A stretch of DNA of 64,000 bases from Streptosporangiaceae bacterium. Its GTDB lineage: Bacteria > Actinomycetota > Actinomycetes > Streptosporangiales > Streptosporangiaceae. Both the position numbers and the translations under genes were made by a program. Each line of letters starts with the position of its first letter. Within the stretch, counting starts at the first letter, position 1. Shown here piece by piece: positions 18,371 to 41,079 of this stretch. Under the pieces are notes generated by a model. It searched no databases. It was not told where the DNA came from and saw nothing but the letters and a program-made list of their open reading frames with translations. The DNA is taken from contig DASYAV010000155.1 of the NCBI GenBank assembly GCA_036501145.1, forward strand, positions 6,164-70,163. Direction: 5' to 3'.

Positions 18371-18386
18371 AGAGGTCTTACCACTG
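18371..18386. promoter_or_regulatory. predicted FadR/GntR-type operator, site 1 (AGAGGTCTTACCACTG), upstream of the SAF/UxaA operon
   Basis: 39 nt upstream of start 18332. Its reverse complement CAGTGGTAAGACCTCT matches the 16-bp consensus. A TATCCT -10-like hexamer sits 6 nt upstream in gene sense. Confidence 0.6.
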
Positions 18387-18497
18387 TGCTGGAGGATAGC
18401 GCAGGCCAGTTCGGCCCGGCAAGGCGGGGCCGGCTCCCCGGGTGGCCGTAATCCGGCAGGTCTGGTGCCCGCGCGCCGCGCGGCTGCCGCGGCCTTC

Positions 18498-19664
18498 TCA
18501 CCACTCGGCCAGCCGCCCGTCACCGAGCCGCCAGACGGGGTCGGGCAGCTCCCAGCCGCTCGCGGCGCCGCGGACAGCCTCCGCGTCGATGCCGATCCCG
18601 AGACCGGGGCCGGCGGGCCGCCGCAGGCTGCCGCCCACCGGGGTGAGCGGGTCCGGGTCGGTCAGGTAGTCGAACATCTCCGCGGCGGGCAGGCCGGCAT
18701 ACCCCCGGTTGTAGTGCAGGCCGAGGCTTTGCTCCTGGATGACCACGTTGCCCGCGCAGCAGCCCACCTGCAGCGAGGCGGCCAGCGCGATCGGGCCGTT
18801 GGGGCAGTGCGGCGCGACGGCCACGTCATAAGCCTCGGCCATCCGGCAGAGCTTCTCCAGGCCGAACAGCCCGGTGAAGCAGACATCGGGCTGGATGATA
18901 TCGACGGCACGGCGCTCGAGCAGGCGGGCGAAGCTCTCCCCGGTGAGCAGGCGCTCGCCGGTGGCCAGCGGCGTGGCCCCGGCCACCCTGGCCAGTTCGG
19001 GGAGCAGATCCTCCTGCCCGGGGGGAACCGGCTCTTCCACCCAGAGCAGGCGGAACTGCTCGAGCTCGCGCAGCAGCGCCTTGGCCATGGCGCGGTGCAC
19101 CCGGCCGTGGAAGTCCAGCGCGACATCGACGGTGGTGCCGAACGCGTCCCGCACCGCGCCGACCCTGGCCACCACGGCGTCGATCTTCGCCGGCCGGTCG
19201 AGCAGGTCCAGCTCCGCGGTCGCGTTCATCTTCACCGCGGAGTAGCCCTGCTCGGTGCGGGCTTTGACCTGGCTCACCACGTCATCCGGCCGGTCCCCGG
19301 CCACCCAGGCGTAGACCCGCACGGTGTCCCGCACGGCGCCGCCGAGGAACTCGTGCGCGGCCAGGCCATGCCGCCTGCCCTTGATGTCCCACAGCGCCTG
19401 CTCGATCGCGGCCGCGGCGGTCGCGAGCACGGGGCCGTCGCGGAAGAACCCGCCGCGCCGCATCCGCTGCCACAGATCCTCGATGCGGCTGGCGTCCTGG
19501 CCAATCACGTTGCGCGCCAGGTCGGCCACCGCGCCCTCGACCGCCGCCGCCCGCTTCGGCACGATGGCCTCGCCCCAGCCGGTCAGCCCGTCGTCGGTCC
19601 GCACCTCGGCGAAAATCCACCGCGGCGGCACCCGGTGCGTCGTCACCGACGCGATGGTGCCCAT
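18498..19664 (-). CDS. enolase-superfamily sugar-acid dehydratase, D-galactonate dehydratase (DgoD)-like
   Basis: 388 aa. N-terminus VTTHRVPPRWIFAEVRTDDGLTGWGEA...IEQALWDIKG matches my recollection of the DgoD N-terminus (from memory; I ran no alignment). Confidence 0.85.
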   Translation of the reverse strand: MGTIASVTTHRVPPRWIFAEVRTDDGLTGWGEAIVPKRAAAVEGAVADLARNVIGQDASRIEDLWQRMRRGGFFRDGPVLATAAAAIEQALWDIKGRRHGLAAHEFLGGAVRDTVRVYAWVAGDRPDDVVSQVKARTEQGYSAVKMNATAELDLLDRPAKIDAVVARVGAVRDAFGTTVDVALDFHGRVHRAMAKALLRELEQFRLLWVEEPVPPGQEDLLPELARVAGATPLATGERLLTGESFARLLERRAVDIIQPDVCFTGLFGLEKLCRMAEAYDVAVAPHCPNGPIALAASLQVGCCAGNVVIQEQSLGLHYNRGYAGLPAAEMFDYLTDPDPLTPVGGSLRRPAGPGLGIGIDAEAVRGAASGWELPDPVWRLGDGRLAEW

Positions 19665-20755
19665 CAGTGGAGCGCGCGGCCGGAGTCCGGGTCGAACACG
19701 TGCAGGCGGGCCGGATCCAGGGTGAATGCGATCTTCTCGCCGACGCCGACCTTGTGCTCCCGGGCCATCTTGGCCGTCACGATCGCGTCGCCCACCTTGA
19801 CGATGACGTGCTGCTCGGAGCCGAGCGGCTCGATCACCTCGACGCTCCCCTCGACCGCCGCCGCGCCTGACGGGGCCGCGGCGGACAGCTTCAGGTGCTC
19901 GGGCCGGATCCCGGCGACGGCCCGCTTGGCGCCGGCAGGCAGCGCCGCGGCGACCTCCCGCGGCAGCCGGAGGCTGACGCCGGTGCCGCGCAGTTCGGCC
20001 GCGGAGTCCGCCGGGACCACCTCGCAGTCGAGGAATCCCATCGGGGGAGTGCCGATGAAGCTGGCGACGAACCTGTTGACGGGCTTGTCGTAGAGCTCAT
20101 CGGGCGTCCCGACCTGCTGCAGCACACCGTCGTGCACCACGGCGATGCGGTCGCCCATCGTCATCGCCTCCACCTGGTCGTGTGTCACGTACACGGCGGT
20201 CGCGGTCACGCTGCGGTGCACCCGGAGGATCTCGGCCCGCATCTGGATCCTGAGGTGGGCGTCCAGGTTGGACAGCGGCTCGTCCAGCAGGAAAACCGCG
20301 GGGTCACGGACGATCGCCCGGCCGAGTGCGACCCGCTGCCGCTGGCCACCGGAAAGCTGACGCGGCTTGCGGTCGAGCAGGTGCTCGATGCCGAGCAGGC
20401 CGGCCGTGTGCCGCACCTGCTGGTCGATGCCGGCCTTCGGCAGGCCGCGCTTGCGCAGCCCGAACGCCATGTTCTGGTAGACGGTCATGTGCGGGTACAG
20501 GCCGTAGTTCTGGAACACCATGGCGATGTCACGCTCGCCCACGTCGACGTCGCTGACCCGCCGGTCACCGAAGTAGATCTCGCCGTCGGTGAGCATCTCC
20601 AGCCCGGCGATGAGGCGCAGCAGGGTCGTCTTGCCCGAGCCGGACGGCCCGACGAGGACGAGGAACTCGTGGTCGGCGATCTCCAGGTCGGTCTCGCGGA
20701 GCGCGTAGGTGTCGCCGTAGCGCTTCGTCACGCCCTTCAGCGCGATGCTGGCCAT
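19664..20755 (-). CDS. sugar ABC transporter ATP-binding protein (MalK/MsiK/UgpC type)
   Basis: ATG 20755 (MASIALKGVTKRYG). Walker A GPSGSGKTT, LSGGQRQRVALGRA. TGATG junction with the SDR gene. Confidence 0.9.
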   Translation of the reverse strand: MASIALKGVTKRYGDTYALRETDLEIADHEFLVLVGPSGSGKTTLLRLIAGLEMLTDGEIYFGDRRVSDVDVGERDIAMVFQNYGLYPHMTVYQNMAFGLRKRGLPKAGIDQQVRHTAGLLGIEHLLDRKPRQLSGGQRQRVALGRAIVRDPAVFLLDEPLSNLDAHLRIQMRAEILRVHRSVTATAVYVTHDQVEAMTMGDRIAVVHDGVLQQVGTPDELYDKPVNRFVASFIGTPPMGFLDCEVVPADSAAELRGTGVSLRLPREVAAALPAGAKRAVAGIRPEHLKLSAAAPSGAAAVEGSVEVIEPLGSEQHVIVKVGDAIVTAKMAREHKVGVGEKIAFTLDPARLHVFDPDSGRALH

Positions 20756-21615
20756 CAGCGTGCCTCCCCGGCCGGTTCGTGCCATAGCTGGCCGCCCACC
20801 CGGGCGGCGAGCGGATCGGGAAACCGGCTGAGTGCCCGGCCGCCGTCCACCCGCAGCACCGCGCCGGTGATGAACGAGGCCTGCGGTGCGGCGAGGAACG
20901 CGACCGCCTCGGCAACCTCAGCCGGTGAGCCGGTCCGGCGCAGCAGCGTGGCCGGCGGCCTGTCCTCGTCCTGGCCGGCGCCGGGCTCCTCGGCGAAGCC
21001 CTTGGTGTCGATGACCCCGGGGGCCACGGCGTTGACCCGCACTCCCAGCGGGGACAGTTCGCCGGCCATCGCCAAGGTCAGGCTGGTCAGCCCGCCCTTG
21101 CTGGCTACGTAGGGCACATGCGTGGCCAGCGGCAGGTCCGCCTGGATGCTGGTGATATTGACGATCGAGCCGGTGCCGCGCGGCACCATGTCCCGGGCGG
21201 CGTCCCGGCCGAGCAGCGCGGCCGCGGCGATGTTGGTGTTCAGCACCGCGGCCAGGTCGGTGGCCGACATGTCCAGGAAGGACACCCGGGGGCCGAGGTA
21301 GGCCGCGTTGTTGACCAGCACGTCGACCCGTCCCCAGCGGCGCAGCACCCGGCCCACCAGCCCCGCGCACTGGCCAAGGTCGGACAGATCGGCCTGCTCG
21401 AAGCAGGCCTGCCCGCCGCGGGCGGATATCCCGTCCGCCGCTGCCTGGCCGGTCACCGGGTCGATGTCCACCAGTGCGACCCGCGCCCGGCCGGCCGCGA
21501 GGCGCTCGGCGACAGCGCGGCCGATGCCGCGCCCCGCGCCGGTGACCAGGGCGACCTGCCCGCTGAAGGGGGCCGTGTCCGCGGCTGCGGCCGGCTCCTG
21601 CGCGACGCCGGGCAC
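20755..21615 (-). CDS. SDR-family oxidoreductase (candidate sugar 1-dehydrogenase)
   Basis: 3' part of fused track ORF 20755..22398. GTG 21615. TGAGRGIG cofactor motif and YVASKGG catalytic YxxxK. Confidence 0.85.
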   Translation of the reverse strand: MPGVAQEPAAAADTAPFSGQVALVTGAGRGIGRAVAERLAAGRARVALVDIDPVTGQAAADGISARGGQACFEQADLSDLGQCAGLVGRVLRRWGRVDVLVNNAAYLGPRVSFLDMSATDLAAVLNTNIAAAALLGRDAARDMVPRGTGSIVNITSIQADLPLATHVPYVASKGGLTSLTLAMAGELSPLGVRVNAVAPGVIDTKGFAEEPGAGQDEDRPPATLLRRTGSPAEVAEAVAFLAAPQASFITGAVLRVDGGRALSRFPDPLAARVGGQLWHEPAGEAR

Positions 21616-21617
21616 CG

Positions 21618-22520
21618 CTAGCTCCCCGCCAGCGCGCCGGCCGTCAGCCCGCGCACCATCGATCGCTGGACCAGGAAAAACGCCACGATCAGCGGCAAGC
21701 TGGTGATGAGCGAGGCGGCCATCATGCCGCCCCAGTCGGTCTTGAAGGTGCCGCTGAAGCTCTGCAGCAGGCCAGGCGGCAGGGTCTGCCGGTTGTTGCT
21801 GCTGGTGAGGGTCAGCGGGTACAGCAGGTTGTTCCAGGTTTCCATGAAGACGAAGACTCCCGTCGTCACCAGGCCCGGGATCGACAGCGGCACGACGACC
21901 CGCACCAGGATGCCCAGCCTGGAGTAGCCGTCCACCCGTGCGGCCTCCTCGATCTCGCGGGGCACGCCGTCGAAGAAGCCCTTCATCAGCCACGCCCCGA
22001 ACGGGATCGCGAACGTGGTGTAGCCGATGACCAGGCCAAGGTAGGTATTGAGCAGGTGCACGTGCAGCAGCAGCAGGTACAGCGGGCCGATGATGACGAC
22101 GAGCGGGATCATCTGGGTGGCCAGCACCGCGACGCTCGAGATCCCGTTCAGCCGGTAGCCCCCGCGGGAGAAGCTGTACCCGGCCAGCGTGGAGATCGCC
22201 ACCACGACCACTGCCGTGGCGACCGACGTGACGATGCTGTTGATCAGGTAGTTGCCGAACGGCAGCGAGCTGCCGAAAAGCTCCCTGAAGTTGGCGCCGG
22301 TGATCGTATGCGGCCACACGGTCGGGCTCAGGTTGGTGGCTTCCTGCGGGGTCTTCAGCGCGGTGGACAGCATCCAGTAGATCGGCCACAGCGTCCACAC
22401 CGCGAACAACCCGACGATCACGATCACCACCGAGCGGCGCACCAGCCGCCGCCTGGCCCGGCGCGGGCCGGTGGCCGTGGTGGGCTCCGGGCCCGCCGTC
22501 GTGACTGTGCTCACACTCAT
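21618..22520 (-). CDS. carbohydrate ABC transporter permease (MalG-like)
   Basis: ATG 22520 (MSVSTV) in an ATGA overlap with the upstream permease stop. Six-TM CUT1 permease pattern. Confidence 0.85.
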   Translation of the reverse strand: MSVSTVTTAGPEPTTATGPRRARRRLVRRSVVIVIVGLFAVWTLWPIYWMLSTALKTPQEATNLSPTVWPHTITGANFRELFGSSLPFGNYLINSIVTSVATAVVVVAISTLAGYSFSRGGYRLNGISSVAVLATQMIPLVVIIGPLYLLLLHVHLLNTYLGLVIGYTTFAIPFGAWLMKGFFDGVPREIEEAARVDGYSRLGILVRVVVPLSIPGLVTTGVFVFMETWNNLLYPLTLTSSNNRQTLPPGLLQSFSGTFKTDWGGMMAASLITSLPLIVAFFLVQRSMVRGLTAGALAGS

Positions 22521-23416
22521 GCGGTTCTCCTCCGCAGCACCCGGATAAATAGCGATGCCACGATAAGCAGCAGCACCAGCCACACCACGCCGATCGCCGA
22601 GGCGTAGCCCAGCTTGAAGCTGGTGAAGGCGAGTTCGTAGACGTAGACCACCAGCGTGGTCGTCCCGTTCGCCGGGCCGCCGCCGGTCATCGCCCAGATC
22701 AGCGGGAAGTCGTTGAAATTCTGGATGATCATCAGCAGCGCGCCGACCAGGGCGGCGTTGCGCAGGTAGGGCAGCTTGATCCGGACGATCATGGACCAGG
22801 CGCCGGCCCGGTCGATCCTGGCCGCCTCGATCACCTCGTCGGGCACGGCGCCAAGCGCCGCCGTGAACAGCAGCAGGAAGAAGGGCGCCCTGGTCCAGAC
22901 GTTCGCCATGATGACCGCGGCCATCGCCCACGGCGGCGAGGTGAGCCACGGGATGGGCGTGTGGATGATCCCGATCTTCTCCAGCAGCACATTGGTGATG
23001 CCACCGGGGTTGGTGAACATGAACTGGAACAGGAAGGCGACCACGATGACCGGCATCGCCCACGGGGTGAGCAGCACCGCGCGGATGAACCGCCACGGGC
23101 CGCGCAGCCGCTCCAGCGCGAGGGCGAGCACCAGCCCCACCAGCAGACCGGCCACCACGGCAATGCCGGTGTAGATCGCGGTATTCTGCAGCGCTTGCCA
23201 GAACACCGGGTCGTGGACGAGCAGGCGGTAGTTGGCCGCGCCCACGAAGTCGTTCACCGGGAACTGCAGGTTGTAGTTGGACAGCGAGATGATGACCGCG
23301 TCGACGATCGGGTAGCCGACGACGACCGCCAGGATGATCAGGGCAGGCGCGGTCATCCAGTCAAACCACCGGTTGCCCCGGCGTCGCCGGGGCAACCGGC
23401 TGCGAGCCATCCGCAC
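22517..23416 (-). CDS. carbohydrate ABC transporter permease (MalF-like)
   Basis: 299 aa, multi-TM, with the EAA-loop region EAARIDRAGAW. Confidence 0.85.
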   Translation of the reverse strand: MRMARSRLPRRRRGNRWFDWMTAPALIILAVVVGYPIVDAVIISLSNYNLQFPVNDFVGAANYRLLVHDPVFWQALQNTAIYTGIAVVAGLLVGLVLALALERLRGPWRFIRAVLLTPWAMPVIVVAFLFQFMFTNPGGITNVLLEKIGIIHTPIPWLTSPPWAMAAVIMANVWTRAPFFLLLFTAALGAVPDEVIEAARIDRAGAWSMIVRIKLPYLRNAALVGALLMIIQNFNDFPLIWAMTGGGPANGTTTLVVYVYELAFTSFKLGYASAIGVVWLVLLLIVASLFIRVLRRRTA

Positions 23417-23424
23417 CAGCTACC

Positions 23425-24798
23425 TCATCCGCCCAGGTCGGTCTGGAGCTTCGACTGGAGGCCCGAGGCGATGGAGGCGACCGGTGCCGAGGTCGTCATC
23501 GCCTGCTGGATAGCCGCCATCACGTCGAGGTAGACGCTGCTGTAGTACGGGCCCCAGCCCGGGGTGATCTCGGTCGGGATGATGTTCTTGATGAACGACT
23601 GCGAAATCGGGTTGTCCAGCGCGCTGGCGACGGCACCGACCGGATGGGCCAGCGGCGGCACCGAGCCCTCGTACTTGATCGTGTAGTTGAGGACCGCGTC
23701 CTGGTTCGTGACCAGGAAGTTCATGAACTGCCACGCGGCACTCTTGTTGGACGCGTTCTTGAACATCACCAGCTGGTGGCCGCTGGGTGTGGTGACGGAC
23801 TGCTGGCCCGCCGTGGCGGTCGGCAGCTTCGCCACACCCCAGGTGCTGTAGAACTTGCTGTCGCTCATATGGTTGGTGGCCTGCACGACGCCCTTGACGT
23901 ACGGGCCGTCCACGGTGAACGCCACCTGATTGGACGCGGCCGGCTGCCGGAAGTAGCCGCCCTTCTGCCCCTCGGGGGTGTACCCGTCCTTGTCGATCGT
24001 GTGCATGAAGGTCAGGTAGCTCCGCATCGCCGCAGTGTCCGCGGTCGCCGTCTTGCCGGTGAAGGGCACGCCGCCGAAGTTCTTCATGATCGGCCAGTTC
24101 TGGTCCAGGCCGTACTCACGGCTGGTGCTGTCGGTCCCGAAGTCGATGACCTTCGGCTCCTTGGCGTGGATGACCTTGCAGTCGGCCAGCAGCTGGGTCC
24201 AGGTGGTGGGCGGGACCGGCTTCAGCCCGGCCGCCTTCATGACCGTCTTGTTGTACCAGAGCCCGAACGGCCCGGTGGTCCAGGGGATCGCCACCTTCTG
24301 CCCGTTGATCGTGCCCGCGCTCAGCTCGTTCGGGATGATGGACGACTGCCACGAGCTTGTCTCGTAGCTGTTCAGCGGCTGCAGCGTACCGGTCTCGGCG
24401 ACGTCGTGGGTGTACTGGCCCTGCAGTTCGGCGACGTCGGGCGTGTTGCCCGACTTGGCCTCCAGCACGAGCTGATGGTCGATGTCGGTGTAGGAGATCG
24501 GCTCGCTCTTGACGGTGATGCCCGGGTGGAGCGCCTCGAACTTCTTGATCATCGCCGCGATCCCGGGTGCGGTGTTGGATTCAGCCGCGGCCCAGTTCCC
24601 AAACGTGATCACATTCTTGCTGCCGCTGCTGCCGCCGCCACCCGAGCTGCACGCGGCCGCGGCCAGGAGCAGCGCCGCCCCGGCCGCGCCGACCGCGAGT
24701 GGACGCCAGCGCGCCTCGCGGCCTCGAGGACGCCCCGGTGCCTGGGTGGTGCGCCCGTGCCTGCGATGCCGTTCCAGCTGCTGACCAGGATTCCACAT
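23425..24798 (-). CDS. extracellular solute-binding lipoprotein (CUT1 family) for oligosaccharide
   Basis: ATG 24798 preceded by GAGGGAA. Lipobox LLLAAAACSSGG. Family-1 SBP body. Confidence 0.85.
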   Translation of the reverse strand: MWNPGQQLERHRRHGRTTQAPGRPRGREARWRPLAVGAAGAALLLAAAACSSGGGGSSGSKNVITFGNWAAAESNTAPGIAAMIKKFEALHPGITVKSEPISYTDIDHQLVLEAKSGNTPDVAELQGQYTHDVAETGTLQPLNSYETSSWQSSIIPNELSAGTINGQKVAIPWTTGPFGLWYNKTVMKAAGLKPVPPTTWTQLLADCKVIHAKEPKVIDFGTDSTSREYGLDQNWPIMKNFGGVPFTGKTATADTAAMRSYLTFMHTIDKDGYTPEGQKGGYFRQPAASNQVAFTVDGPYVKGVVQATNHMSDSKFYSTWGVAKLPTATAGQQSVTTPSGHQLVMFKNASNKSAAWQFMNFLVTNQDAVLNYTIKYEGSVPPLAHPVGAVASALDNPISQSFIKNIIPTEITPGWGPYYSSVYLDVMAAIQQAMTTSAPVASIASGLQSKLQTDLGG

Positions 24799-24830: not shown

Positions 24831-24846
24831 CAGTGGTCTGACCTCT
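24831..24846. promoter_or_regulatory. predicted operator, site 2 (CAGTGGTCTGACCTCT), upstream of the SBP/ABC operon
   Basis: 33 nt upstream of ATG 24798. Downstream of TTGACA (rc of 24888-24893), an 18-nt spacer and CACAGT. Confidence 0.65.
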
Positions 24847-24912
24847 GATCTCCTCTGTGCTGTACTGTGCCGCGCCTGGTGTGCCGGTGTCAACCAGGAC
24901 CGACGCGGCGGG

Positions 24913-27834: not shown

Positions 27835-27850
27835 CGGTGGTCTGACCTCT
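27835..27850. promoter_or_regulatory. predicted operator, site 3 (CGGTGGTCTGACCTCT), upstream of the GH51-like hydrolase
   Basis: 25 nt upstream of ATG 27810. Downstream of TTGACA (rc of 27889-27894), an 18-nt spacer and AAGAGT. Confidence 0.65.
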
Positions 27851-27941
27851 GAACTCTTGGGAACACTCTTCCTGGCTCGGCGGCGGCCTGTCAATCACCT
27901 ACCGGAAGAAGACGGGTAGGCACTGCGATCGCAAGCAGGTA

Positions 27942-27957
27942 AAGTGGTTTGACCATT
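27942..27957. promoter_or_regulatory. predicted operator, site 4 (AAGTGGTTTGACCATT), upstream of the GntR gene itself
   Basis: 42 nt upstream of ATG 27999. Contains the perfect TGGT-N3-ACCA arrangement. Confidence 0.6.
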
Positions 27958-27998: not shown

Positions 27999-28841
27999 AT
28001 GGGCGACGACGAGATTTACCCGGCCGGAAAGACACCCGACGGCATTCACCCGGCCGGAAAGACACCCGACGGCAAGCTCTGGACGCCGCTGCGCCAGGGC
28101 ACCGTGTCGGACCTGATCGCACGCCGCATTCTCGAGGTGATCCGCAGCGAGCAGCTGCGTCCCGGGGACCGGCTGCCACCGGAGCGTGAGCTGGCCGCGA
28201 TGCTGGGCACCTCCCGGCCGTCGCTACGGGAGGCGCTGCAGGCGATCAAGGCCCGCGGCTGGGTGGACATCCGGCACGGTTCCGGCGTCTTCGTCGCCGA
28301 CCCGGCCACCACCCGCAGCCTGCGGGAGGCGCTGCTCGCCGAGGAGGTGAGCCTGCGCGAGCTGTTCGACATGCGCGAGGTGCTCGAACTGCCCGCTGCC
28401 GCCTGGGCGGCCAAGAGCGCCGGGAGCGCCAAGCTGGCCGCCGTGCAGCAGGCCTACGACGCGCTGATGGCCGGGGCCGGCAGCGGAGGCGGCGGCAACA
28501 GCGGGGGCGACAGCGGGGAGGCCGTCGACTGGCCGCGGCTGCAGGAACTCGACGCCGCTTTCCACCTGCGCATCGTCGAGGCGGCAGGAAACCGCTTCCT
28601 GGCCAGGACCCAGGGTGTGCTGCAGGAGATCCTCGCCACCGGGATGGACACCACGCTGCGGCTGCCCGGCAGGCTCGGCAAGTCCCGCGGCGAACACGCC
28701 CGCATCCTGGCCGCGGTCATGTCGGGCAACCCGGCCGCGGCGCGGCGGGCCGCGCTCACCCACATCAACAGCGCACGCAAGGCGGCGCTGAGCAGGCTGC
28801 ACGAGCAGCCAGGCGGCCAGCCCGAACAACCCGGTGGCTAG
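27999..28841 (+). CDS. GntR-family transcriptional regulator, FadR subfamily (FCD domain)
   Basis: wHTH ARRILEVIRSEQLRPGDRLPPERELAAMLGTSRPSLREALQ followed by a helical FCD-type C-terminal domain. The N-terminus contains a 10-aa tandem duplication. Confidence 0.85.
   Translation: MGDDEIYPAGKTPDGIHPAGKTPDGKLWTPLRQGTVSDLIARRILEVIRSEQLRPGDRLPPERELAAMLGTSRPSLREALQAIKARGWVDIRHGSGVFVADPATTRSLREALLAEEVSLRELFDMREVLELPAAAWAAKSAGSAKLAAVQQAYDALMAGAGSGGGGNSGGDSGEAVDWPRLQELDAAFHLRIVEAAGNRFLARTQGVLQEILATGMDTTLRLPGRLGKSRGEHARILAAVMSGNPAAARRAALTHINSARKAALSRLHEQPGGQPEQPGG
28015..28074 (+). repeat. 30-bp tandem duplication (2 copies, 29/30 identical) at the 5' end of the GntR gene
   Basis: tt(t/c)ACCCGGCCGGAAAGACACCCGACGGCA twice. 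Encodes IYPAGKTPDG and IHPAGKTPDG. Confidence 0.9.
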
Positions 28842-30364
28842 GGCGAACCGGACGCGCCGGGCAGCGGCCCGCCCGGCGCTTTCTCGCTGATCGAGCTGGC
28901 CGCCTTGCGCACCATGGACAGCGGGCTGGCCACCTCCTCCAGCGATTTGCCCTCGGCGTTGACACCGAGGAAGGCCGCGACCAGGCCGCCCACGATCATC
29001 GCGCCCGCTCCGATCAGATAGCCGACGTAGAGCTTGTTCGGGTCGCTGCCGTCGCCGATCAGGTGACCGTACAGGTGCGAGCCGAGCGAGCCGAAGCCCT
29101 GGGCGATGGCGAAGAACACCGCGATGGCCTGTGCCCGCACCTCGAGCGGGAAGACCTCGCTGGCGGTCAGGTAACCGGCGCTCGCGCCGGCCGAGGCGAA
29201 GAAGAAGATCACCGCCCAGCACAGCGTCTGCGTGGTCGCGTTCAGCGTGCCGGCTTTGAACAGCTGGGCGGTGATCACCAGCAGCACCCCGGACAGGATG
29301 TAGGTGCCGGCGATCATCTTCTTCCGTCCGATCGTGTCGAACAGGCGCCCAATGGTCAGCGGCCCGAGCAGGTTCCCGGCCGCGAAGGCGAGCAGGTAGT
29401 ACGGCGTGTCGGCCGCGGGCACGTGGAAGAAGATGGTCAGCACCAGGCCGTAGGTGAAGAAGATCGCGTTATAGAGGAACGACTGCGTGATCATCAGCGC
29501 GGCGACCAGGGTGCTGCGGGACGGATAGTGCAGGCACAGCACCTTGATGAGTGCCAGGTAACCGGTCTGCGCGGCCGGGACGATCTCGATCGCCTTGCTC
29601 TCATCGAGCGGCGGAAGGCTCTTGCCGCCCTTCGTGGCCTCGGCCTCGATCTGCGCGATGGATGCCTCGGCCTCCTTGGCCCTGCCGTGCATGACCTGCC
29701 AGCGGGGGCTCTCCGGAAGGTTACGCCGGACGTAGATGACGCATAGCCCCAGCACCGGGCCGATCAGGAAGGCTAGCCGCCACCCCAGGCCGGCCGACAC
29801 GTTGTGCAGCAGGATCAGCGTGCCGATGGTCCCTAGGATCGACCCCGCCCAGTAGGTCCCGTTCACCGCGATGTCGATGCGGCCCCGGTACCGCGCCGGG
29901 ATCATCTCGTCGATCGCCGAGTTGATCGCCGCATACTCGCCGCCGATGCCCGCGCCCGCGATGATCCGCGTGATGTAGAGGTAGACCACCCAGCCGCCCG
30001 CGCCCGCCTGCGTGGCGGCGGTGAGGCCGCTGCCCACCAGGTAGACACCGAGCGTGATCATGAACAGATTCCGCCTGCCGAGCTTGTCGGACAGCCGGCC
30101 GAACACCAGGGCCCCGATGATCTGGCCGATCAGGTACCAGGTGGCGATGTCCGCGACGCCCGACGCGGACATGCCGAGCGCGTTGGGATTTGTCAGCTGA
30201 GCGGTAAGGGAACTGGCCACGGTGATCTCGAGGCCGTCCAGGACCCAGGCCACGCCGAGCGCCATCACCATCTTGGTGTGGAACGGCGACCAGCCCAGCC
30301 GGTCGATGCGTGCCGGTACCAGGCTCCTGATAACCGGGCTCGAGGTCTCCGACGCGGCTGCCAT
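28838..30364 (-). CDS. MFS transporter (sugar-porter / metabolite:H+ symporter type)
   Basis: ATG 30364 with GGAGG RBS. 12-TM pattern and GRLSDKLGRRN loop motif. Confidence 0.85.
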   Translation of the reverse strand: MAAASETSSPVIRSLVPARIDRLGWSPFHTKMVMALGVAWVLDGLEITVASSLTAQLTNPNALGMSASGVADIATWYLIGQIIGALVFGRLSDKLGRRNLFMITLGVYLVGSGLTAATQAGAGGWVVYLYITRIIAGAGIGGEYAAINSAIDEMIPARYRGRIDIAVNGTYWAGSILGTIGTLILLHNVSAGLGWRLAFLIGPVLGLCVIYVRRNLPESPRWQVMHGRAKEAEASIAQIEAEATKGGKSLPPLDESKAIEIVPAAQTGYLALIKVLCLHYPSRSTLVAALMITQSFLYNAIFFTYGLVLTIFFHVPAADTPYYLLAFAAGNLLGPLTIGRLFDTIGRKKMIAGTYILSGVLLVITAQLFKAGTLNATTQTLCWAVIFFFASAGASAGYLTASEVFPLEVRAQAIAVFFAIAQGFGSLGSHLYGHLIGDGSDPNKLYVGYLIGAGAMIVGGLVAAFLGVNAEGKSLEEVASPLSMVRKAASSISEKAPGGPLPGASGSP

Positions 30365-30370
30365 AGCCCT

Positions 30371-30404
30371 ACCTCCGGATCGCTGCGGGTGAACCTCCGG
30401 ATCG
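30371..30404. repeat. 12-nt direct repeat ACCTCCGGATCG (period 22) duplicating the MFS ribosome-binding region
   Basis: Copies at 30371-30382 and 30393-30404. In MFS sense each reads CGATCCGGAGGT and so contains GGAGG. Only the proximal copy is followed by an ATG. Confidence 0.75.
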
Positions 30405-30500
30405 TTTCTGTGAACCTGTCCTACCCATTTCTGCTGGGTCATTCGCACTTTCCGGCCCGGCGCCGGCATTCTGCCGGGTCGTGGCCTGGCCGACCGAGAG

Positions 30501-30516
30501 CTTTGGTAAGACCTCT
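30501..30516. promoter_or_regulatory. predicted operator, site 5 (CTTTGGTAAGACCTCT), in the MFS / GH3 divergent region
   Basis: 83 nt upstream of the GH3 ATG 30599 and 137 nt from the MFS ATG 30364. Overlaps a TTGTCA-N18-TAGGCT promoter-like arrangement. Confidence 0.55.
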
Positions 30517-30598
30517 TGTCACCTGGCCACCATCAAAATTAGGCTGGCCGGCAGGCCCGCGCCCCCGCGGGCAGCCGTACCTGGACAGGACAGTGACG

Positions 30599-33500
30599 AT
30601 GGCATCGCGCACGCTCCATGGAAGGCGGGGCATCGGCCTCGCAACCGCGGCAGTTCTGCTGATCCCGCTCTGCGCGGTGGCCACCGGCCCGCCCGCGGCG
30701 GCTCAGGCAGCCCAGGCAACCGCCCGGGCGTCCGCCCACAGACCGGCACGGCCGGCCGGGCGGACGGCGGCCACCGCGGACCCGTCGTGCCCGTGGCTGC
30801 ATTCGGCCGCGCCGCCGGCGCAGCGGGCCGCGGAGCTGCTCAGCCAGATGACACTCGACGAGAAACTCGGCATGCTCGGGCTGGCCAACAGCTCCGACGG
30901 GTACGAGAACGTCACCACCGCCGTCCCGTCGCTGTGCATCCCGCGGCTCGTCCTGCAGGACGGGCCGGCCGGGATCACCGCCGGGCCGGCCGGATCGCAC
31001 ACCCAGCTGCCCGCCCCGATCGACGTCGGCGCCAGCTTCGACACCGCCCTGGCGCGCGAGTACGGCGAGATCCAGGGCAGCGAGGCGGCGGCCAAGGGCA
31101 TCGACGCCGTGCAGGGCCCGGACGTCAACATCGCCCGGGTGCCCCAGGGCGGCCGGGACACCGAGGGTTACGGCGAAGACCCGTATCTGTCCGGCCAGCT
31201 CGGCACGGCCGACGCCCAGGGCATCCACAGCCAGGGCGCGATGGCGATGGTCAAGCACTTCGACGACTACAACCAGGAAGCCGGCCGCAACACGCCACAG
31301 GACAACGAGATCGTCTCGGCCAGGACGCTGCATGAGATCTACATGCCTGCCTTCCAGGACGTGCTGCAGGACGGCCACGCGGCCTCGGTGATGTGCTCCT
31401 ACGCCATGATCAACGGCGTGTTCTCCTGCCAGGATCCGCAACTGCTCACCGATGTGCTGCGTGACCAGTGGGGCTTTCAGGGATTCATCCGCTCCGACCT
31501 GGGCGCGGTGCACGACACCGTGCAGGCCTTCACCGCGGGCATCGGCCAGGTCAAGCCCGATGCGACCGGCGCCGTGACGGCGGCGGTGAGCGACGGCCAG
31601 ATCCCCATGGCCACCGTCAACGCCGCGGTCAGCAGCGTGCTCACCGCCATGTTCGGCTACGGCGTGTTCAACCGGGCACCAGCCGGCACCGCCAGCACCG
31701 GCGCCTCGACGCCCGCGCACCAGGCCGGGGCGACCGCCCTGGCCGAGCAGGGCAGCGTGCTGCTGCAGAACACCGGCCAGACCCTCCCGCTCAGCACGGC
31801 CGCGGCCGGATCCATCGCCGTCATCGGCGCCGACGGGGGCAGCGCCGCCGAGACGGCCATGACCTCCGGCAGCAGCGCCTACGTCAGCGCGGCCAGCGTG
31901 GTCACGCCCTACCAGGGCATCTCGGCCGCCGCCGGGCCAGGCGTCACGGTCAGCTACAACGACGGGAGCAGCCTGACCTCGGCCGCGGCCGCAGCGGCCG
32001 CCGCGAAGACCGCGGTCGTCTTCGTCAATGATCCGGCCGGCGAAGGGGCCGACCTGAAGTCGCTGAGCCTCCCGGGCAGCCAGGACCAGCTCGTCGAGGC
32101 CGTGGCCGCGGCCAACCCGGACACGGTCGTGGTGATCAACAGCGGCAACCCGGTGCTGATGCCGTGGCTCAGCCAGGTCAAGGCGGTCATCGAGGCCTGG
32201 TACCCGGGCCAGCAGGACGGCAGCGCCATCGCGGCGCTGCTGTTCGGCACCGTGGACCCGTCCGGCAAGCTGCCGGTGACCTTCCCGCAGAGCGCGGCGG
32301 ACACCCCGACGAGCAGCCCTCAGCAGTACCCCGGCCAGGACGGCCAGATCGACTACTCCGAAGGGCTCGATGTCGGGTACCGCGGATACGACGCCGACGG
32401 CATCACGCCACTGTTCCCGTTCGGGTACGGCCTGTCGTACACCACGTTCGGCTTCAGCGGCCTGAGCGTCACACCCGGCGCCACAACCTCGCTGGGCCGG
32501 ATCCAGGTCGCGGCGACCGTGACCAACACCGGCAGCCGGGCCGGGGCGGACGTGGCCCAGCTCTACCTCGGCGACCCGGCCTCCGCCGGGGAACCGCCAC
32601 GCCAGCTCAGGGGCTTCCAGAAGGTCGCCCTGGCCCCCGGCCAGTCCGCCCGGGTGCACTTCACCCTCACCCCCGCCGACCTGTCCTCCTGGGACAGCGG
32701 CAGCCAGGCCTGGCAGGTGCCGGCCGGCGGCTACCAGGTGTATGTGGGTGACTCCTCGGCCCTGGCCGGCCTGCCGCTGCGCGGCGGCTTCGAGGTGACG
32801 GGCACCACCGGCACCCGGCACGCCACCGTCACCGCCCCCGGCCAGGCCGAGGCGGGCAAGCCGTTCACCGTCACCGGCACGCTGTCCGGCGGCGGGAACC
32901 TCACGGTCGCGGGCGCCAGGCTGGCCCTCACCGCGCCGCCCGGCTGGCGGGTCACCCCGGGCAGGCCGGTCACCGCCGGCACCCTGGGCCCGGGCCAGGC
33001 GCTCACCGGGTCCTGGCAGGTCACCGCCCCGGCCACCGCCCAGGACAACACCGGCCAGCTCACCGCCACCGCCACTTATCAGGGACCGGGAGGCACCGCC
33101 ACCAGCACGAGCGGCGCCCAGATCACCGTGGCCCCGCTGGTCACCACCACCGTCAGCCCGCAGCCCATCCTGACCCAGCCCGGCCAGGGCGTCACCGCCA
33201 CCGTGACGAACACCGACTCCAGCGGCTACCCGGTCCGGGTGGCCTGGGCCGCCAGCCCACCCGCCGGATCCGGGATCACCGTCAGCCCCGGCTCCGGCAC
33301 CGCCACCCTGGCCCCCGGCGGCACCGCCAGCGCACAGGTCTCGGTGAGCGCCAGCACCCCCGGCAGCAGTCTCCTCCCGGTCACCACCACGGTGACCGCA
33401 GACGGCGCCACCTTGCCAGGCTCGGGGGCCTATCCGCAGGTCACCGTGCCCTACCCGACGACGGCCGCGGCGTTCGGCAACACCGGGATCACCGATGACT

Positions 33501-34021
33501 CCGATCACACCCCGGGGAACTTCGACGGGTACGGCAACAGCTACTCCGCCGAGGCGCTGGCCAACGCCGGCATCGTCCCGGGCTCGCCGGTCACCGCGGG
33601 TGGTGTCACGTACAGCTGGCCGGGTGTGCCCGCCGGGCAGAACGACAACGTCGTGGCCAGCGGGCAGACCATCGCGGTGCCCGGGTCTGGGAGCACGCTC
33701 GGGTTCCTCGGCGCGGCGGACAACGGGGACGCCTCGGGAACCGGGACCATCGTCTACACCGACGGCAGCACGCAGCAGTACACCATCGGGTTCGCCAACT
33801 GGATCGACAGCACACCGATCGACGGCGACACCCTCGTCGCCACCACGGCGTACTTCAACCGCACCACCCCGGGGTCGGCCCGCACCCCCAGCGTGTTCGC
33901 CGCCTCGGTCCCGCTGCAGGCCGGCAAGACCGTCGCCTATGTGACGCTGCCCGACGTCAGCGGCAGCACGGTGAGCAGCAGCACGGTGTCCATGCACATC
34001 TTCGCGATCGGCACCGGATGA
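30599..34021 (+). CDS. secreted GH3 beta-glucosidase/xylosidase-type hydrolase + Fn3-like + two NEW3-like domains + shared C-terminal module
   Basis: ATG 30599 (MASRTLHGRRGIGLATAAVLL signal). GH3 motifs SQMTLDEKLGML and GFIRSDLGAV (nucleophile region). Confidence 0.9.
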   Translation: MASRTLHGRRGIGLATAAVLLIPLCAVATGPPAAAQAAQATARASAHRPARPAGRTAATADPSCPWLHSAAPPAQRAAELLSQMTLDEKLGMLGLANSSDGYENVTTAVPSLCIPRLVLQDGPAGITAGPAGSHTQLPAPIDVGASFDTALAREYGEIQGSEAAAKGIDAVQGPDVNIARVPQGGRDTEGYGEDPYLSGQLGTADAQGIHSQGAMAMVKHFDDYNQEAGRNTPQDNEIVSARTLHEIYMPAFQDVLQDGHAASVMCSYAMINGVFSCQDPQLLTDVLRDQWGFQGFIRSDLGAVHDTVQAFTAGIGQVKPDATGAVTAAVSDGQIPMATVNAAVSSVLTAMFGYGVFNRAPAGTASTGASTPAHQAGATALAEQGSVLLQNTGQTLPLSTAAAGSIAVIGADGGSAAETAMTSGSSAYVSAASVVTPYQGISAAAGPGVTVSYNDGSSLTSAAAAAAAAKTAVVFVNDPAGEGADLKSLSLPGSQDQLVEAVAAANPDTVVVINSGNPVLMPWLSQVKAVIEAWYPGQQDGSAIAALLFGTVDPSGKLPVTFPQSAADTPTSSPQQYPGQDGQIDYSEGLDVGYRGYDADGITPLFPFGYGLSYTTFGFSGLSVTPGATTSLGRIQVAATVTNTGSRAGADVAQLYLGDPASAGEPPRQLRGFQKVALAPGQSARVHFTLTPADLSSWDSGSQAWQVPAGGYQVYVGDSSALAGLPLRGGFEVTGTTGTRHATVTAPGQAEAGKPFTVTGTLSGGGNLTVAGARLALTAPPGWRVTPGRPVTAGTLGPGQALTGSWQVTAPATAQDNTGQLTATATYQGPGGTATSTSGAQITVAPLVTTTVSPQPILTQPGQGVTATVTNTDSSGYPVRVAWAASPPAGSGITVSPGSGTATLAPGGTASAQVSVSASTPGSSLLPVTTTVTADGATLPGSGAYPQVTVPYPTTAAAFGNTGITDDSDHTPGNFDGYGNSYSAEALANAGIVPGSPVTAGGVTYSWPGVPAGQNDNVVASGQTIAVPGSGSTLGFLGAADNGDASGTGTIVYTDGSTQQYTIGFANWIDSTPIDGDTLVATTAYFNRTTPGSARTPSVFAASVPLQAGKTVAYVTLPDVSGSTVSSSTVSMHIFAIGTG

Positions 34022-34129
34022 GCCGGGGTGGGGCTAGCACCAGGGCCGGCCGGGGGGGTAGCGGGATTCCCCTGGTAGGGCCGCCGCACGTACCGTCGGG
34101 CAGGGACAGGCGCGACAGACGGAGGCGGC

Positions 34130-34597
34130 ATGCAGACCAACCACCGCAACGAGATCGCCGCCTCGCTGGCCGCACAGCAGAGCCTCGGCTCCGGCTACGA
34201 CGAGGCACTGGCCGAAGGCCTGGTGGAGCGGATCGGCGAGGAGATCGACCAGCGGATCGAGGCCCGGGTCGACCAGCGGATCACCGGGGAGGCCGACAGC
34301 CCGCCAGGCAGCGGGCCGCACCTGGACTGCCGGCATGCCCGCCGGGTGCAGCGCCGCGCCACGCGGCAGGCCGAGCGGGCCGAGCGGGCCGGGCGGCCGT
34401 CGGTCACGCTGGCGCTCGGCTCGCTGGCGGGCGCCATCCTGGCCAGCCTCACGGTGCTGCTCACCAGCGAGACCAACGTCGCCACGAGCAACGGGTTCAC
34501 CAAGACCGGGCCGACCGGCTCGGCGCTGTTCCTCACCGCGCTCATCTGGATCGTCATCGGGGTCATCAACGTCGTGCACGCCCGCAGGCGGCTCTGA
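34130..34597 (+). CDS. hypothetical membrane protein (helical N-domain, two C-terminal TM segments)
   Basis: GGAGG RBS before ATG 34130. High GC3. No family I can name. Confidence 0.55.
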   Translation: MQTNHRNEIAASLAAQQSLGSGYDEALAEGLVERIGEEIDQRIEARVDQRITGEADSPPGSGPHLDCRHARRVQRRATRQAERAERAGRPSVTLALGSLAGAILASLTVLLTSETNVATSNGFTKTGPTGSALFLTALIWIVIGVINVVHARRRL

Positions 34598-34640
34598 GCA
34601 CCGCGGGCGGCTCTGCACACCGCGGGCGGCTCGCCGCATC
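34581..34640 (+). repeat. three imperfect 20-nt tandem units straddling the stop of the 34130..34597 gene
   Basis: cccgcaggcggctctgagca / ccgcgggcggctctgcacac / cgcgggcggctcgccgcatc. Confidence 0.75.
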
Positions 34641-34766
34641 GCCGGCGGTGCTGACCACCGCGAGGCGGCGACGGAGCCGCCGGATAGCATCGGCATCGCT
34701 AGGACGGGCGCGGCCGGCGGCATCCGCCCGGCCCGCACGACCCCCGGTCCAGACGAGAGGACAGCG

Positions 34767-35690
34767 ATGACCACGGGCGCGACGTTTGTCCCGGCCGGCG
34801 TGATGGTGGCGCTGGCGACCCCGGTGCACGCCGACGGGAAGCTCGACGGCGGCGGGCTCGAGCGCCTGGTCAGCCGGGTGATCTCCGGCGGCGTCGACGG
34901 GATAAGCCCGCTCGGCTCCACCGGCGAGGGAGCCCGGTTCACCCGCGCCCAGCGGGTGGAGGTCTGCCGCCGGGTGCGTGAGCTGACCCCGCCCGGCATG
35001 CCGGTCATCCCGGGCCTGCCCCTGGTCACGCCGGCCGAAGGGCCCGCCGAACTGGACGCGCTGGCCGAGGCCGGCGCCACCGCGGCGCTGGTGGCGCCGC
35101 CCTACTACTACCCGCTGTCCGACGACGGCGTGCTGCGGGTCTACGAGACGCTCGCCGAGAGCTCCCCCATCCCGCTGGTGCTCTACAACATCCCGGTGTT
35201 CACCAAGATCAGCATCGCGCCCGCGGTGGTCGGGCGGCTGGCCGCCCACCCGGCCATCGCCGGGATCAAGGATTCCAGCCGCGACATGGACTACCAGGCC
35301 AAGGTCATCGAGGCGACGGCGGGCGCCGAGTTCCGCGTGCTCACCGGGGCCGACACCCTGCTGGTCGTCGGCCTCACCCTGGGCGCGGCCGGCATCATCG
35401 GGGCCAGCGCCAACCTGGTGCCCGAGCTGACCGCCGGGGTGTACCGGGCCTTCACGGCCGGCGACCTGGCCACGGCAAAGAGCGTGCAGCAGCGACTGTC
35501 CCGGATCACCAGCGCCTGCCGGGTGGGCTACCCGCCGGCCGGCTGGAAGGCGGCCCTGCAGATCGCCGGCGTGTGCGGCCCCGACCTGGTCCCGCCCGGC
35601 ACCCGGCTGCCGGCCGACCAGCACGCCCGGCTCGCTGAGCAGCTGACCGCCGAGGGCCTGGCAGCCGCCCAGGCCGGGGCCGGCCGGTGA
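34767..35690 (+). CDS. DapA/NAL-family class I aldolase (candidate 2-keto-3-deoxy-sugar-acid aldolase)
   Basis: ATG 34767. GSTGEG, YNIP and Schiff-base lysine in IAGIKDSS. Confidence 0.85.
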   Translation: MTTGATFVPAGVMVALATPVHADGKLDGGGLERLVSRVISGGVDGISPLGSTGEGARFTRAQRVEVCRRVRELTPPGMPVIPGLPLVTPAEGPAELDALAEAGATAALVAPPYYYPLSDDGVLRVYETLAESSPIPLVLYNIPVFTKISIAPAVVGRLAAHPAIAGIKDSSRDMDYQAKVIEATAGAEFRVLTGADTLLVVGLTLGAAGIIGASANLVPELTAGVYRAFTAGDLATAKSVQQRLSRITSACRVGYPPAGWKAALQIAGVCGPDLVPPGTRLPADQHARLAEQLTAEGLAAAQAGAGR

Positions 35691-36577
35691 CCGGTACCGC
35701 TGCCCCGCAACCGGTCACCGCGCCGGCACAGCTGGCCGAGAGCCCGATCTGGGACGCCGGCACGCGGACGCTGCTGTGGGTGGACATCCCGCCCGGGGAC
35801 GTGCACCGGTTCGACCCGGCCACCGGCCAGGACACCGCGACGCACGTGGGCGTGCCGGTCGGGGCGGTGGCGGCGCGCCGCGGCGGCGGGCTCATCCTCG
35901 CCGCGGGGCTCGGCTTCGCCACCCTGGACGAGGCGTCAGGGACGGTGGACTGGCTGTGGTCCGGCGGGCTCGGGGACAGGATGAACGACGGCAAGTGCGA
36001 CCCGGCGGGCCGGTTCCTGGCCGGCACGCTCACCCACGCCCGCGACCCGGGCGCGTGCGCGCTGTACCGGCTGGACCCGGCCGTGCAGGAAGGCAGCCCG
36101 CCGCGGGTCAGCGTCCTGCTGAACGGCGTGACGCTGTCCAACGGCCTGGGCTGGAGCCCGGCGGGCGACGTGATGTACTTCGCCGACACCCCGCTGGAGC
36201 GGGTTGACGTGCTGGACTACGATCCAGGCACCGGCGAGGCCAGCGGCCGCCGCCTGTTCGTGGACCTGCACGACGTGCCGGGCAGGCCGGACGGGCTGAC
36301 GGTGGACAGCGAAGGGGCGGTCTGGATCGCCATGTCCCGCGGCGGCGCGGTGCGCCGGTACACGCCGGACGGACGGCTGGACCGGGTGATCGAGTTCCCG
36401 GTTCGGCTGGTCACCAGCGTCAGCTTCGGCGGCGACGGCCTCGGCGACCTGTACGTGACCACCTCGCGGGAGAACCTGGCCGACAGTGACCTGGCCAGCC
36501 AGCCGCTGGCCGGTTCGGTCTTCGTAGTCCCCGGCACCGGGGTGCGCGGCCTGCCCGCCTGCAGCTACGCGGGCTGA
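35687..36577 (+). CDS. SMP-30/gluconolactonase/LRE-family lactonase
   Basis: GTGA overlap with the aldolase gene. AESPIWD, SNGLGWSP, PDGLTVD and LYVTTS beta-propeller motifs. Confidence 0.85.
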   Translation: MTGTAAPQPVTAPAQLAESPIWDAGTRTLLWVDIPPGDVHRFDPATGQDTATHVGVPVGAVAARRGGGLILAAGLGFATLDEASGTVDWLWSGGLGDRMNDGKCDPAGRFLAGTLTHARDPGACALYRLDPAVQEGSPPRVSVLLNGVTLSNGLGWSPAGDVMYFADTPLERVDVLDYDPGTGEASGRRLFVDLHDVPGRPDGLTVDSEGAVWIAMSRGGAVRRYTPDGRLDRVIEFPVRLVTSVSFGGDGLGDLYVTTSRENLADSDLASQPLAGSVFVVPGTGVRGLPACSYAG

Positions 36578-36722
36578 GCCCACCGGCCGCTGACTCCGCC
36601 GCGGCCCGCTCCCCGGCGCCGCGGCTCGGGATGGCCGCCGGGAGAACTTCCTCACCCTAAGTAATCTAACCCGGTCATATATTGACCCTTCACGCCTCCC
36701 CGACTTATCGTCTTGTTTCGGT

Positions 36723-36738
36723 CAGTGGTCTGACCTCA
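36723..36738. promoter_or_regulatory. predicted operator, site 6 (CAGTGGTCTGACCTCA), upstream of GH2
   Basis: 43 nt upstream of GTG 36781. Downstream of TTGACC (36682-36687), an 18-nt spacer and TATCGT. Confidence 0.65.
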
Positions 36739-41070: not shown

Positions 41071-41079
41071 CGCGGCATC

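Follow-up and report, generated by a model that had tools for sequence, protein, structure and literature searches.

Six FadR-type sites and the GntR regulon they predict in a carbohydrate locus of a Streptosporangiaceae bacterium

Genes and sites of the locus

We analyzed a 64,000-nt stretch of DNA from a Streptosporangiaceae bacterium (hereafter the window; GenBank assembly GCA_036501145.1, contig DASYAV010000155.1, positions 6,164 to 70,163), which has a G+C content of 72% and is part of a 177-kb metagenome contig of the Joint Genome Institute (JGI 3300036780, Ga0376652_0000117) with stored gene calls. In a gene map drawn from GC3 frame analysis together with Pfam and NCBIfam searches, coding sequence takes up ~91.6% of the window. 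The locus under study carries a gene for a FadR-subfamily GntR regulator among genes for glycoside hydrolases (GHs), transporters and sugar-acid enzymes, together with six copies of a 16-bp near-palindrome, which we number operators 1 to 6 (Table 1).

On the minus strand, the operon of the SAF and UxaA/GarD subunits and two dehydrogenases spans 14811..18332, with overlapping start and stop codons between neighbouring genes, and the operon of the solute-binding protein (SBP) and the ATP-binding cassette (ABC) transporter spans 18498..24798, where the JGI gene calls concur. The GH51-like protein gave weak matches to GH51 arabinofuranosidase structures, the closest structure to the GH2 enzyme is a beta-D-galactosidase (5euv/5ldr, 313 bits), and the major facilitator superfamily (MFS) transporter is a 508-aa product in the JGI call.

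A sequence-only reading of this DNA had proposed that the 16-mer is a FadR-type operator confined to promoter gaps of the locus. All six 16-mers that it listed are present exactly as written, with correct coordinates and strands; they are non-coding, though so little of the window is, and lie 24-82 nt upstream of start codons (the alternative MFS start aside). Its start codons had been picked independently, and the JGI calls give matching starts for most genes preceded by a site, being identical to our map for the SAF, SBP, GH51-like, GH3, 155-aa, DHDPS and GH2 genes.

Table 1 Predicted operators and genes of the locus (distances run from site edge to start codon)
Feature	Position (strand)	Sequence	Remarks
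Operator 1	18371..18386 (-)	CAGTGGTAAGACCTCT	ahead of SAF/UxaA operon; 38 nt to ATG 18332
Operator 2	24831..24846 (+)	CAGTGGTCTGACCTCT	ahead of SBP/ABC operon; 32 nt to ATG 24798
Operator 3	27835..27850 (+)	CGGTGGTCTGACCTCT	ahead of GH51-like gene; 24 nt to ATG 27810
Operator 4	27942..27957 (+)	AAGTGGTTTGACCATT	putative autoregulatory site of the regulator; 41 nt to ATG 27999
Operator 5	30501..30516 (+)	CTTTGGTAAGACCTCT	between divergent MFS and GH3 genes; 82 nt to GH3 ATG 30599; 31 nt to MFS ATG 30469 (136 nt if JGI-called start 30364)
Operator 6	36723..36738 (+)	CAGTGGTCTGACCTCA	ahead of GH2; 42 nt to GTG 36781
Ldh_2 dehydrogenase	14811-15863 (-)		Pfam, NCBIfam
D-2-hydroxyacid dehydrogenase	15860-16894 (-)		Pfam, NCBIfam
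UxaA/GarD large subunit (GD_AH)	16891-18051 (-)		386 aa; Pfam, NCBIfam
SAF small subunit	18048-18332 (-)		94 aa; Pfam, NCBIfam
D-galactonate dehydratase	18498-19664 (-)		NCBIfam 477 bits, cut-off 311
MalK-like ATPase	19664-20755 (-)		Pfam
Short-chain dehydrogenase/reductase (SDR)	20755-21615 (-)		Pfam
Two permeases	21618-22520 and 22517-23356 (-)		Pfam
SBP	23425-24798 (-)		Pfam
Secreted GH51-like hydrolase	24913..27810 (-)		NPCBM-associated domain; Pfam; signal peptide right after ATG 27810
FadR-subfamily GntR regulator	27999..28841 (+)		280 aa; winged helix-turn-helix (wHTH) ~aa 40-99, FCD aa 121-257
MFS sugar transporter	28838..30469 (-)		Pfam Sugar_tr 1.6e-43; start at 30469, 30445 or 30364
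GH3 hydrolase	30599-34021 (+)		signal peptide; Pfam; closest structures beta-glucosidases
155-aa membrane protein	34130-34597 (+)		no Pfam or NCBIfam match
DHDPS-family aldolase/dehydratase	34767-35690 (+)		Pfam
SMP-30 lactonase	35687-36577 (+)		Pfam
Secreted GH2 beta-galactosidase-like enzyme	36781..40197 (+)		Pfam; Tat-type signal SRRGFL

The operator motif, its regulator and their conservation

The six near-palindromes have the consensus mAGTGGT-MWG-ACCTCT and the half-site AGWGGT, and all contain GGT-N3-ACC, in keeping with the palindromic TKGT/ACMA form and its 3-nt GT-AC spacing. The consensus, allowed up to three mismatches, matched the window five times against 0.5 expected, and none of 100 dinucleotide-preserving shuffles reached five. 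A position weight matrix (PWM) built from the six sites scored these at 24-28 bits and the next unrelated position on both strands of the 64 kb at 9.5 bits. Because this matrix was trained on the very sites it scored, we built a second, symmetrised 17-bp PWM from 52 sites of other genomes. It recovered the same six positions only (19.9-26.5 bits), with the next window match, in coding DNA, at 9.0 bits and shuffled windows reaching up to 15.6 bits, a test only partly independent since the 52 sites had been picked by the window PWM at 17 bits. With both matrices a wide gap separates the sites from their next-best competitors (20-28 versus ~9 bits), and coding DNA of the window holds no match of equal quality. 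Nothing in common was found among the six sites beyond the core TGGTnnGACC, which marks them as a discrete element and not as a longer dispersed repeat. An RNA element was rejected as their explanation, since an Rfam search of 14000-41000 gave no family match and the loop of the palindrome is too small for a hairpin.

Operators of the FadR subfamily are palindromes with TKGT/ACMA boxes, and GT and AC lie 3 nt apart for DgoR, ExuR, FadR, GlcC, LldR and PdhR (PMC4494728); the supplement of that paper gives FadR sites such as AAGTGGTAAGACCTCTT and TTGTGGTCTGACCTCTA. The PdhR box is AATTGGTnnnACCAATT, in which GGTnnnACC is essential, and PdhR is autoregulated (PMC7660256). Corynebacterium glutamicum LldR binds TtgTGGTCTGACCAtgA at -4 to +13 (PMC2602784), and TGGTAAGACCA was predicted in 2007 upstream of a Mycobacterium smegmatis FadR-like gene (PMC2018728). 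The motif matches these catalogued operators, in the case of FadR nearly word for word, and the TGGT-N3-ACC(A/T) form is documented for FadR, PdhR and LldR; the label 'FadR-type' is therefore accurate.

The domain composition of the regulator agrees with its earlier assignment to the FadR subfamily of GntR proteins: Pfam detected GntR (PF00392, E = 2e-19, aa 40-99) and FCD (PF07729, E = 1.6e-23, aa 121-257) and gave no UTRA match. An operator of the HutC/DasR type, whose dre box resembles the motif, was rejected, as the regulator has FCD instead of UTRA and the GT-AC spacing is 3 nt rather than 4. That this protein is the sole regulator of the locus is consistent with Pfam scans covering most called window genes, which gave no other transcription factor. 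The closest solved structures are those of E. coli PdhR, NanR and C. glutamicum LldR, with PdhR the best. The regulator aligns over its full length with the PdhR structure 9jpj, the LldR structure 2di3 is among the sequence matches, and the recognition helix SRPSLREAL is nearly identical to SRPSLREAI in PdhR. FadR residues R35, R45, R49 and G66 are reported to be indispensable for DNA binding (PMC2602784); they are matched by R63, R73, R77 and G94 of the regulator (offset 28), as read from the alignment offset (query 42-100 versus FadR 14-72) and the query sequence without a printed FadR alignment. No NCBIfam equivalog cut-off is reached (scores with cut-offs in brackets: NanR 98.5 (260), GlcC 96.6 (301), LldR 93.5 (311), PdhR 84.9 (330); FadR profile 42 bits against 189; UxuR and ExuR likewise), and the regulator therefore belongs to an unnamed orthologous group. 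The gene also contains a 30-bp tandem duplication (28007-28074; 2.3 copies, 92% identity) encoding YPAGKTPDGI/HPAGKTPDGK, which falls in an N-terminal extension of ~27 aa that is not conserved among the orthologues.

A search with the regulator protein, limited to a single genome for each species, gave 48 loci, ~31 of which look orthologous (44-83% identity), from Streptosporangiaceae, Pseudonocardia, Prauserella, Amycolatopsis, Saccharopolyspora, Sciscionella, Rhodococcus, Arthrobacter and others; the best match in the genome collection (83% identity) is in a metagenome-assembled genome of Streptosporangiaceae. In 24 of the 31 orthologous loci, the 300 nt in front of the regulator gene hold a site that scores 17 bits or more. 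Site density is 3.38/kb upstream of the regulator versus 0.05/kb elsewhere in the loci (68-fold), and shuffled upstream regions average 0.04 loci. Across the 52 orthologous sites, G5, G6, T7 and A11, C12, C13 are nearly invariant. By phylogenetic footprinting, the sites are thus strongly conserved in orthologous loci.

The motif follows the neighbours of the regulator as well. In ~22 loci the regulator is divergent from a SAF-UxaA(-2-HADH-Ldh_2) operon, where 2-HADH denotes the 2-hydroxyacid dehydrogenase, and in the window, where 9.6 kb part the two, the operon still has its operator. Where genes are rearranged, the motif stands before HADH-Ldh_2 (L022), the DHDPS gene (L009) or SAF (L025, L029, L030), and it also precedes acid transporters of three families, namely SDF (L003, L005, L006, L010), GntP (L007) and SSF (L002, L008). 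Judged from these gene arrangements, the regulator together with the divergent operon for split SAF/UxaA, 2-hydroxyacid dehydrogenase and Ldh_2 is the conserved and apparently ancestral core. The hydrolases, the MFS gene and the ABC operon with its D-galactonate dehydratase look like lineage-specific recruits, found in close relatives only. The sequence-only reading had placed all of these in one regulon. In Saccharopolyspora-type loci (L012, 10769-18652; also L013-L015 and L017) a strong site of 23-27 bits lies between GH31 and a divergent MFS gene. The operon there, which adjoins the orthologous regulator in Saccharopolyspora and Amycolatopsis echigonensis, comprises GH31 (YicI-like), an IlvD/Edd dehydratase, an SDR, a KDPG-type aldolase and a lactonase; it encodes another oxidative sugar route, one that shares the motif.

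Since the hydrolases and the ABC operon are missing from most of the genome loci, metagenomes were scanned with the GH51-like protein. This gave a close relative, L052, whose regulator and GH51-like protein are 84% and 75% identical to those of the window. L052 keeps five sites at equivalent positions: before SBP, the GH51-like gene, the regulator and a GtaA-type hydrolase gene, and beyond the lactonase gene, where the 16-mer is identical to the GH2 operator of the window. The GtaA-type hydrolase gene takes the place of GH3 ahead of the genes for the 155-aa protein, aldolase and lactonase. The distant metagenome GH51-like homologues (L053-L068) showed neither sites nor regulon genes and are uninformative.

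In two Actinomadura loci (L026, 6304-7235; L029, 12117-13048), a variant of the motif (TAGAGGTTTGACCTCT / TAGTGGTTTGACCTCT) precedes a class-I fumarase/tartrate-dehydratase-type gene; the regulator there is only 45-48% identical, and the variant hints at a link to C4 hydroxy acids.

Promoter geometry and the sign of regulation

When the SAF-upstream regions of 19 genomes were anchored on the operator, 17 had a TTGnnn-17/18-TAnnnT element whose end falls 0-10 nt ahead of the site (mean over shuffles 0.13, at most 2), and the ribosome-binding site comes shortly after the operator. The operator would therefore lie over roughly the start of transcription and the initial 20 nt. In the window, the SAF promoter TTGCCG-18-TATCCT (18422-18393, minus) ends 6 nt upstream of operator 1, and a mechanical scan placed TTGACC-18-TATCGT (36682-36711) 11 nt upstream of operator 6 at GH2. 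Two minus-strand promoters were located by eye: TTGACA (24893-24888)-18-CACAGT (24869-24864), 17 nt upstream of operator 2 at SBP, and TTGACA (27894-27889)-18-AAGAGT (27870-27865), 14 nt upstream of operator 3 at the GH51-like gene. At the regulator gene, operator 4 overlaps the -10 element of TAGGCA (27917-27922)-17-TAAAGT (27940-27945), and promoter and operator are both conserved in L052 and L001. Relative to these promoters the operators fall at about +1 to +25, or over the -10 element at the regulator's own gene, which is repressor geometry; the arrangements at GH2, SBP, the GH51-like gene and the regulator resemble that of LldR.

The operator regions 24831-24893 and 27835-27894 and that of L001 (11284-11343) share an extended minus-strand layout: TTGACA, 17-18 nt, nAnAGT, 14-17 nt, the operator and a common GAnCTC flank. 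This shared layout points to duplication of entire promoter-operator cassettes during growth of the regulon.

On this sequence evidence, the six near-palindromes are very probably operators for a dimer of the FadR-subfamily GntR protein, which would repress the 18-gene locus. In the proposed mechanism, the dimer would, without effector, bind the operators and repress seven transcription units (14811-40197): the regulator itself; SAF/UxaA-2-HADH-Ldh_2; SBP-ABC-SDR-galactonate dehydratase; GH51-like; MFS; GH3-membrane protein-aldolase-lactonase; and GH2. Repression would come about by occupation of the transcription start or early transcribed region, or of the -10 element at the regulator's own promoter. 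A small carboxylic acid from or into the pathway would then bind the FCD domain and release the regulator; candidate effectors are a sugar acid such as D-galactonate, a 2-keto-3-deoxy acid or a C3-C4 hydroxy acid. Acid transporters of such diverse families under the motif suggest a carboxylic-acid effector of this kind, as is usual for FCD domains. Binding itself, the direction of control and the identity of the effector are inferences of this model. The earlier claim of a single co-repressed regulon fits site conservation and geometry; its co-repression part is inferred from promoter geometry and is ambiguous at the GH3 site.

Several points weigh against this model. Seven of the 31 orthologous loci are without a strong site directly upstream of the regulator gene, and the promoters are predicted from consensus matches. 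Operator 5 is centred at about -43, which fits occlusion of the -35 element and also resembles the activator position of FadR. The GGTnnnACC core is common to several FadR-family regulators, and the scan covers 64 kb of the genome, so that paralogues binding TGGT-N3-ACCA may sit elsewhere.

Operator 5 raises the possibility of dual action, in which the regulator represses most units and activates GH3-aldolase-lactonase, and possibly MFS, from about -43, much as E. coli FadR activates fabA from a comparable position. The site abuts, and by one base overlaps, the -35 element of TTGTCA (30516-30521)-18-TAGGCT (30540-30545), and the homologous operator-TTGCCA-17-TAGGCT arrangement heads the hydrolase unit of L052; this promoter (TTGYCA-17/18-TAGGCT) is thus conserved between the two, and its operator is placed unlike the start-proximal sites at the other promoters. 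Overlap with -35 is, however, also a standard repressor position, operator 5 faces the divergent MFS gene as well, and an activator released by its effector would shut a catabolic operon when the substrate appears, which makes little physiological sense. We regard dual action as unlikely and repression as the likelier role of operator 5, because the GH3 unit is a catabolic operon.

It is still less probable that a different FadR-family paralogue elsewhere in the genome, such as a PdhR or LldR homologue, uses the sites while the local regulator has another target. The shared core and the 64-kb scope of the scan leave room for such a protein, but the motif adjoins the gene for this very orthologue in 24 of 31 genomes drawn from several orders, it tracks the neighbour genes as well, and the Pfam scans, which covered most called genes of the window, offered no second candidate. 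Chance recurrence, a promoter element or a dispersed repeat, for which the motif's being AT-richer than the genome (and so somewhat favoured in intergenic DNA) and a -35-like TTGACC in one site might speak, is effectively refuted by the shuffles and score gap above, the separate -35/-10 hexamers beside the sites, the dyad symmetry, the conservation across genera, the lack of sharing outside the core and the negative Rfam search.

The earlier remark that no site stands before 34130 or 34767 holds, as the PWM scans gave not even a weak match there. These gaps also lack terminator-like hairpins. GH3, the 155-aa protein, aldolase and lactonase (30599..36577) are probably one transcription unit headed by operator 5: in the window and in L052 alike, a site-headed hydrolase gene is followed by the 155-aa, aldolase and lactonase genes, which favours read-through from the upstream gene, as had been suggested. 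The 108-nt leader before 34130 (34022-34129) is conserved in four relatives at 66% mean identity, with equivalents at 11332-11457 in L001, 2442-2587 (minus) in L052 and ~11100-11265 in L031. This conservation makes an internal promoter or second control element conceivable; a further operator and an RNA hairpin are candidates for the leader too. It gave no Rfam match, and its fold z-scores are weak (-1.9, 0.0, -2.0). In L001 the 155-aa, aldolase and lactonase genes directly follow a perfect site; its flank resembles the leftward SBP/GH51-type promoters, which makes its target there uncertain.

An inverted repeat in the leader, GCTAGCACC-N12-GGTGCTAGC, pairs perfectly in L001 and with one G.U pair in L052, and only an eroded copy is left in the window. 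The N-terminal part of the 155-aa protein is acidic and helical, and two transmembrane helices are predicted at its C-terminal end. L001, L031 and L052 have the protein at 50-66% identity, encoded ahead of their aldolase and lactonase genes. In the 169-nt gap between its gene and the DHDPS-family gene, a 19-bp tandem repeat (34582-34669; 4.6 copies, consensus CCGCGGGCGGCTCTGAGCA) was found.

The catabolic module and known FadR-family systems

The gene set fits an oxidative, non-phosphorylative sugar route. In this reconstruction, the hydrolases would free a sugar, the SDR would oxidise it to a lactone and the lactonase would open this to an aldonic acid, from which D-galactonate dehydratase would form a 2-keto-3-deoxy acid for cleavage or dehydration by the DHDPS-family enzyme.

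In the core operon of the window and of ~20 orthologous loci (for example L002, 6475-9857) the split SAF (94 aa) and UxaA/GarD (386 aa) subunits are always accompanied by D-2-hydroxyacid and Ldh_2 dehydrogenases. SuyAB is the only known heteromeric enzyme of the UxaA/GarD superfamily and is without the four conserved cysteines that serve as Fe ligands (PMC6336799). The window has separate small and large subunits in its SAF and GD_AH genes, as in SuyAB, and its large subunit shares four invariant cysteines with all of 15 orthologues, 14 of which also have a fifth, a pattern that would speak against SuyAB if these are the published four. SuyAB is accompanied by a two-dehydrogenase 'racemase', which the dehydrogenase pairing here would resemble. 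A sulfolactate reading is prompted by the SuyAB-like split, by L-sulfolactate dehydrogenase as the best NCBIfam match of Ldh_2 (166 bits, cut-off 500) and by GH31 in the Saccharopolyspora-type loci. A sulfoquinovose/sulfolactate pathway was nevertheless rejected for L012, as its GH31 is of the YicI type (~340-360 bits, against ~141 bits for the YihQ sulfoquinovosidase) and the large-subunit cysteines are invariant.

In a wider reading, tentative and less likely than not, the regulator would represent an uncharacterised but widespread actinobacterial orthologous group. Its ancestral target would be a new acid-catabolic module, in which a heteromeric UxaA/GarD-type dehydratase with cysteines is joined by two 2-hydroxyacid dehydrogenases that differ in being of opposite stereospecificity. 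In this lineage the regulon might then have grown by duplication of promoter-operator cassettes, and a single effector would tie secreted galactan/arabinogalactan hydrolases, together with a galactose route of the oxidative, non-phosphorylative type, to that module.

Among known systems, C. glutamicum LldR (CGL2915), the repressor of the cgl2917-lldD operon, is an actinobacterial GntR+FCD protein like the window regulator, its high-affinity operator TtgTGGTCTGACCAtgA shares the 11-bp core GTGGTCTGACC with the window consensus, and its site is start-proximal, as proposed here. It senses L-lactate and controls small lactate/fructose operons, whereas the window regulator is not its orthologue by NCBIfam score and faces a 25-kb glycan and sugar-acid locus with six operators. 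E. coli PdhR, which senses pyruvate, has the near-identical recognition helix, the same GGTnnnACC and autoregulation, but it is a global regulator of central metabolism with an AATT-flanked box, while the window sites are flanked by AG(T/A) and CTCT and their predicted targets form a local catabolic locus. Gammaproteobacterial FadR uses sites that are nearly the same words as those of the window, and its contact residues are conserved; it binds acyl-CoA and controls fatty-acid genes, and only its wHTH (query 42-100) aligns with the window regulator. E. coli DgoR, a D-galactonate-responsive FadR-family repressor of a sugar-acid operon that contains D-galactonate dehydratase, is a functional analogue with a GT-N3-AC motif. 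It differs in its operator, a TTGTA-type repeat, and in controlling a single phosphorylative dgo operon that has neither hydrolases nor a SAF/UxaA module, and it was not among the NCBIfam matches. PenR of Rhodococcus jostii was set aside, having a different operon and a different proposed operator, GTATAC (PMC11998424). The regulatory principle is textbook FadR, PdhR or LldR biology, and the regulon is a previously unnamed case of a well-known class, that of local FadR-type regulons.

For an uncultured Streptosporangiaceae-like actinomycete, the analysis yields a testable regulon map of six operators, seven transcription units and 18 genes, in which three secreted glycoside hydrolases and two transporters are tied to an oxidative D-galactonate route. 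The conserved SAF/UxaA-D-2-HADH-Ldh_2 module is the most interesting loose end; regulator, operator and effector could help to identify its substrate, or be used in actinomycetes as a part for inducible expression.

Past the regulon, the region 40183-50025 is without sites and encodes a 298-aa protein with no Pfam match, an MFS transporter, an aconitase, a glyoxalase/dioxygenase-fold protein, a GH65 phosphorylase and a HAD hydrolase, the last two resembling a kojibiose- or trehalose-type phosphorylase with its beta-phosphoglucomutase.

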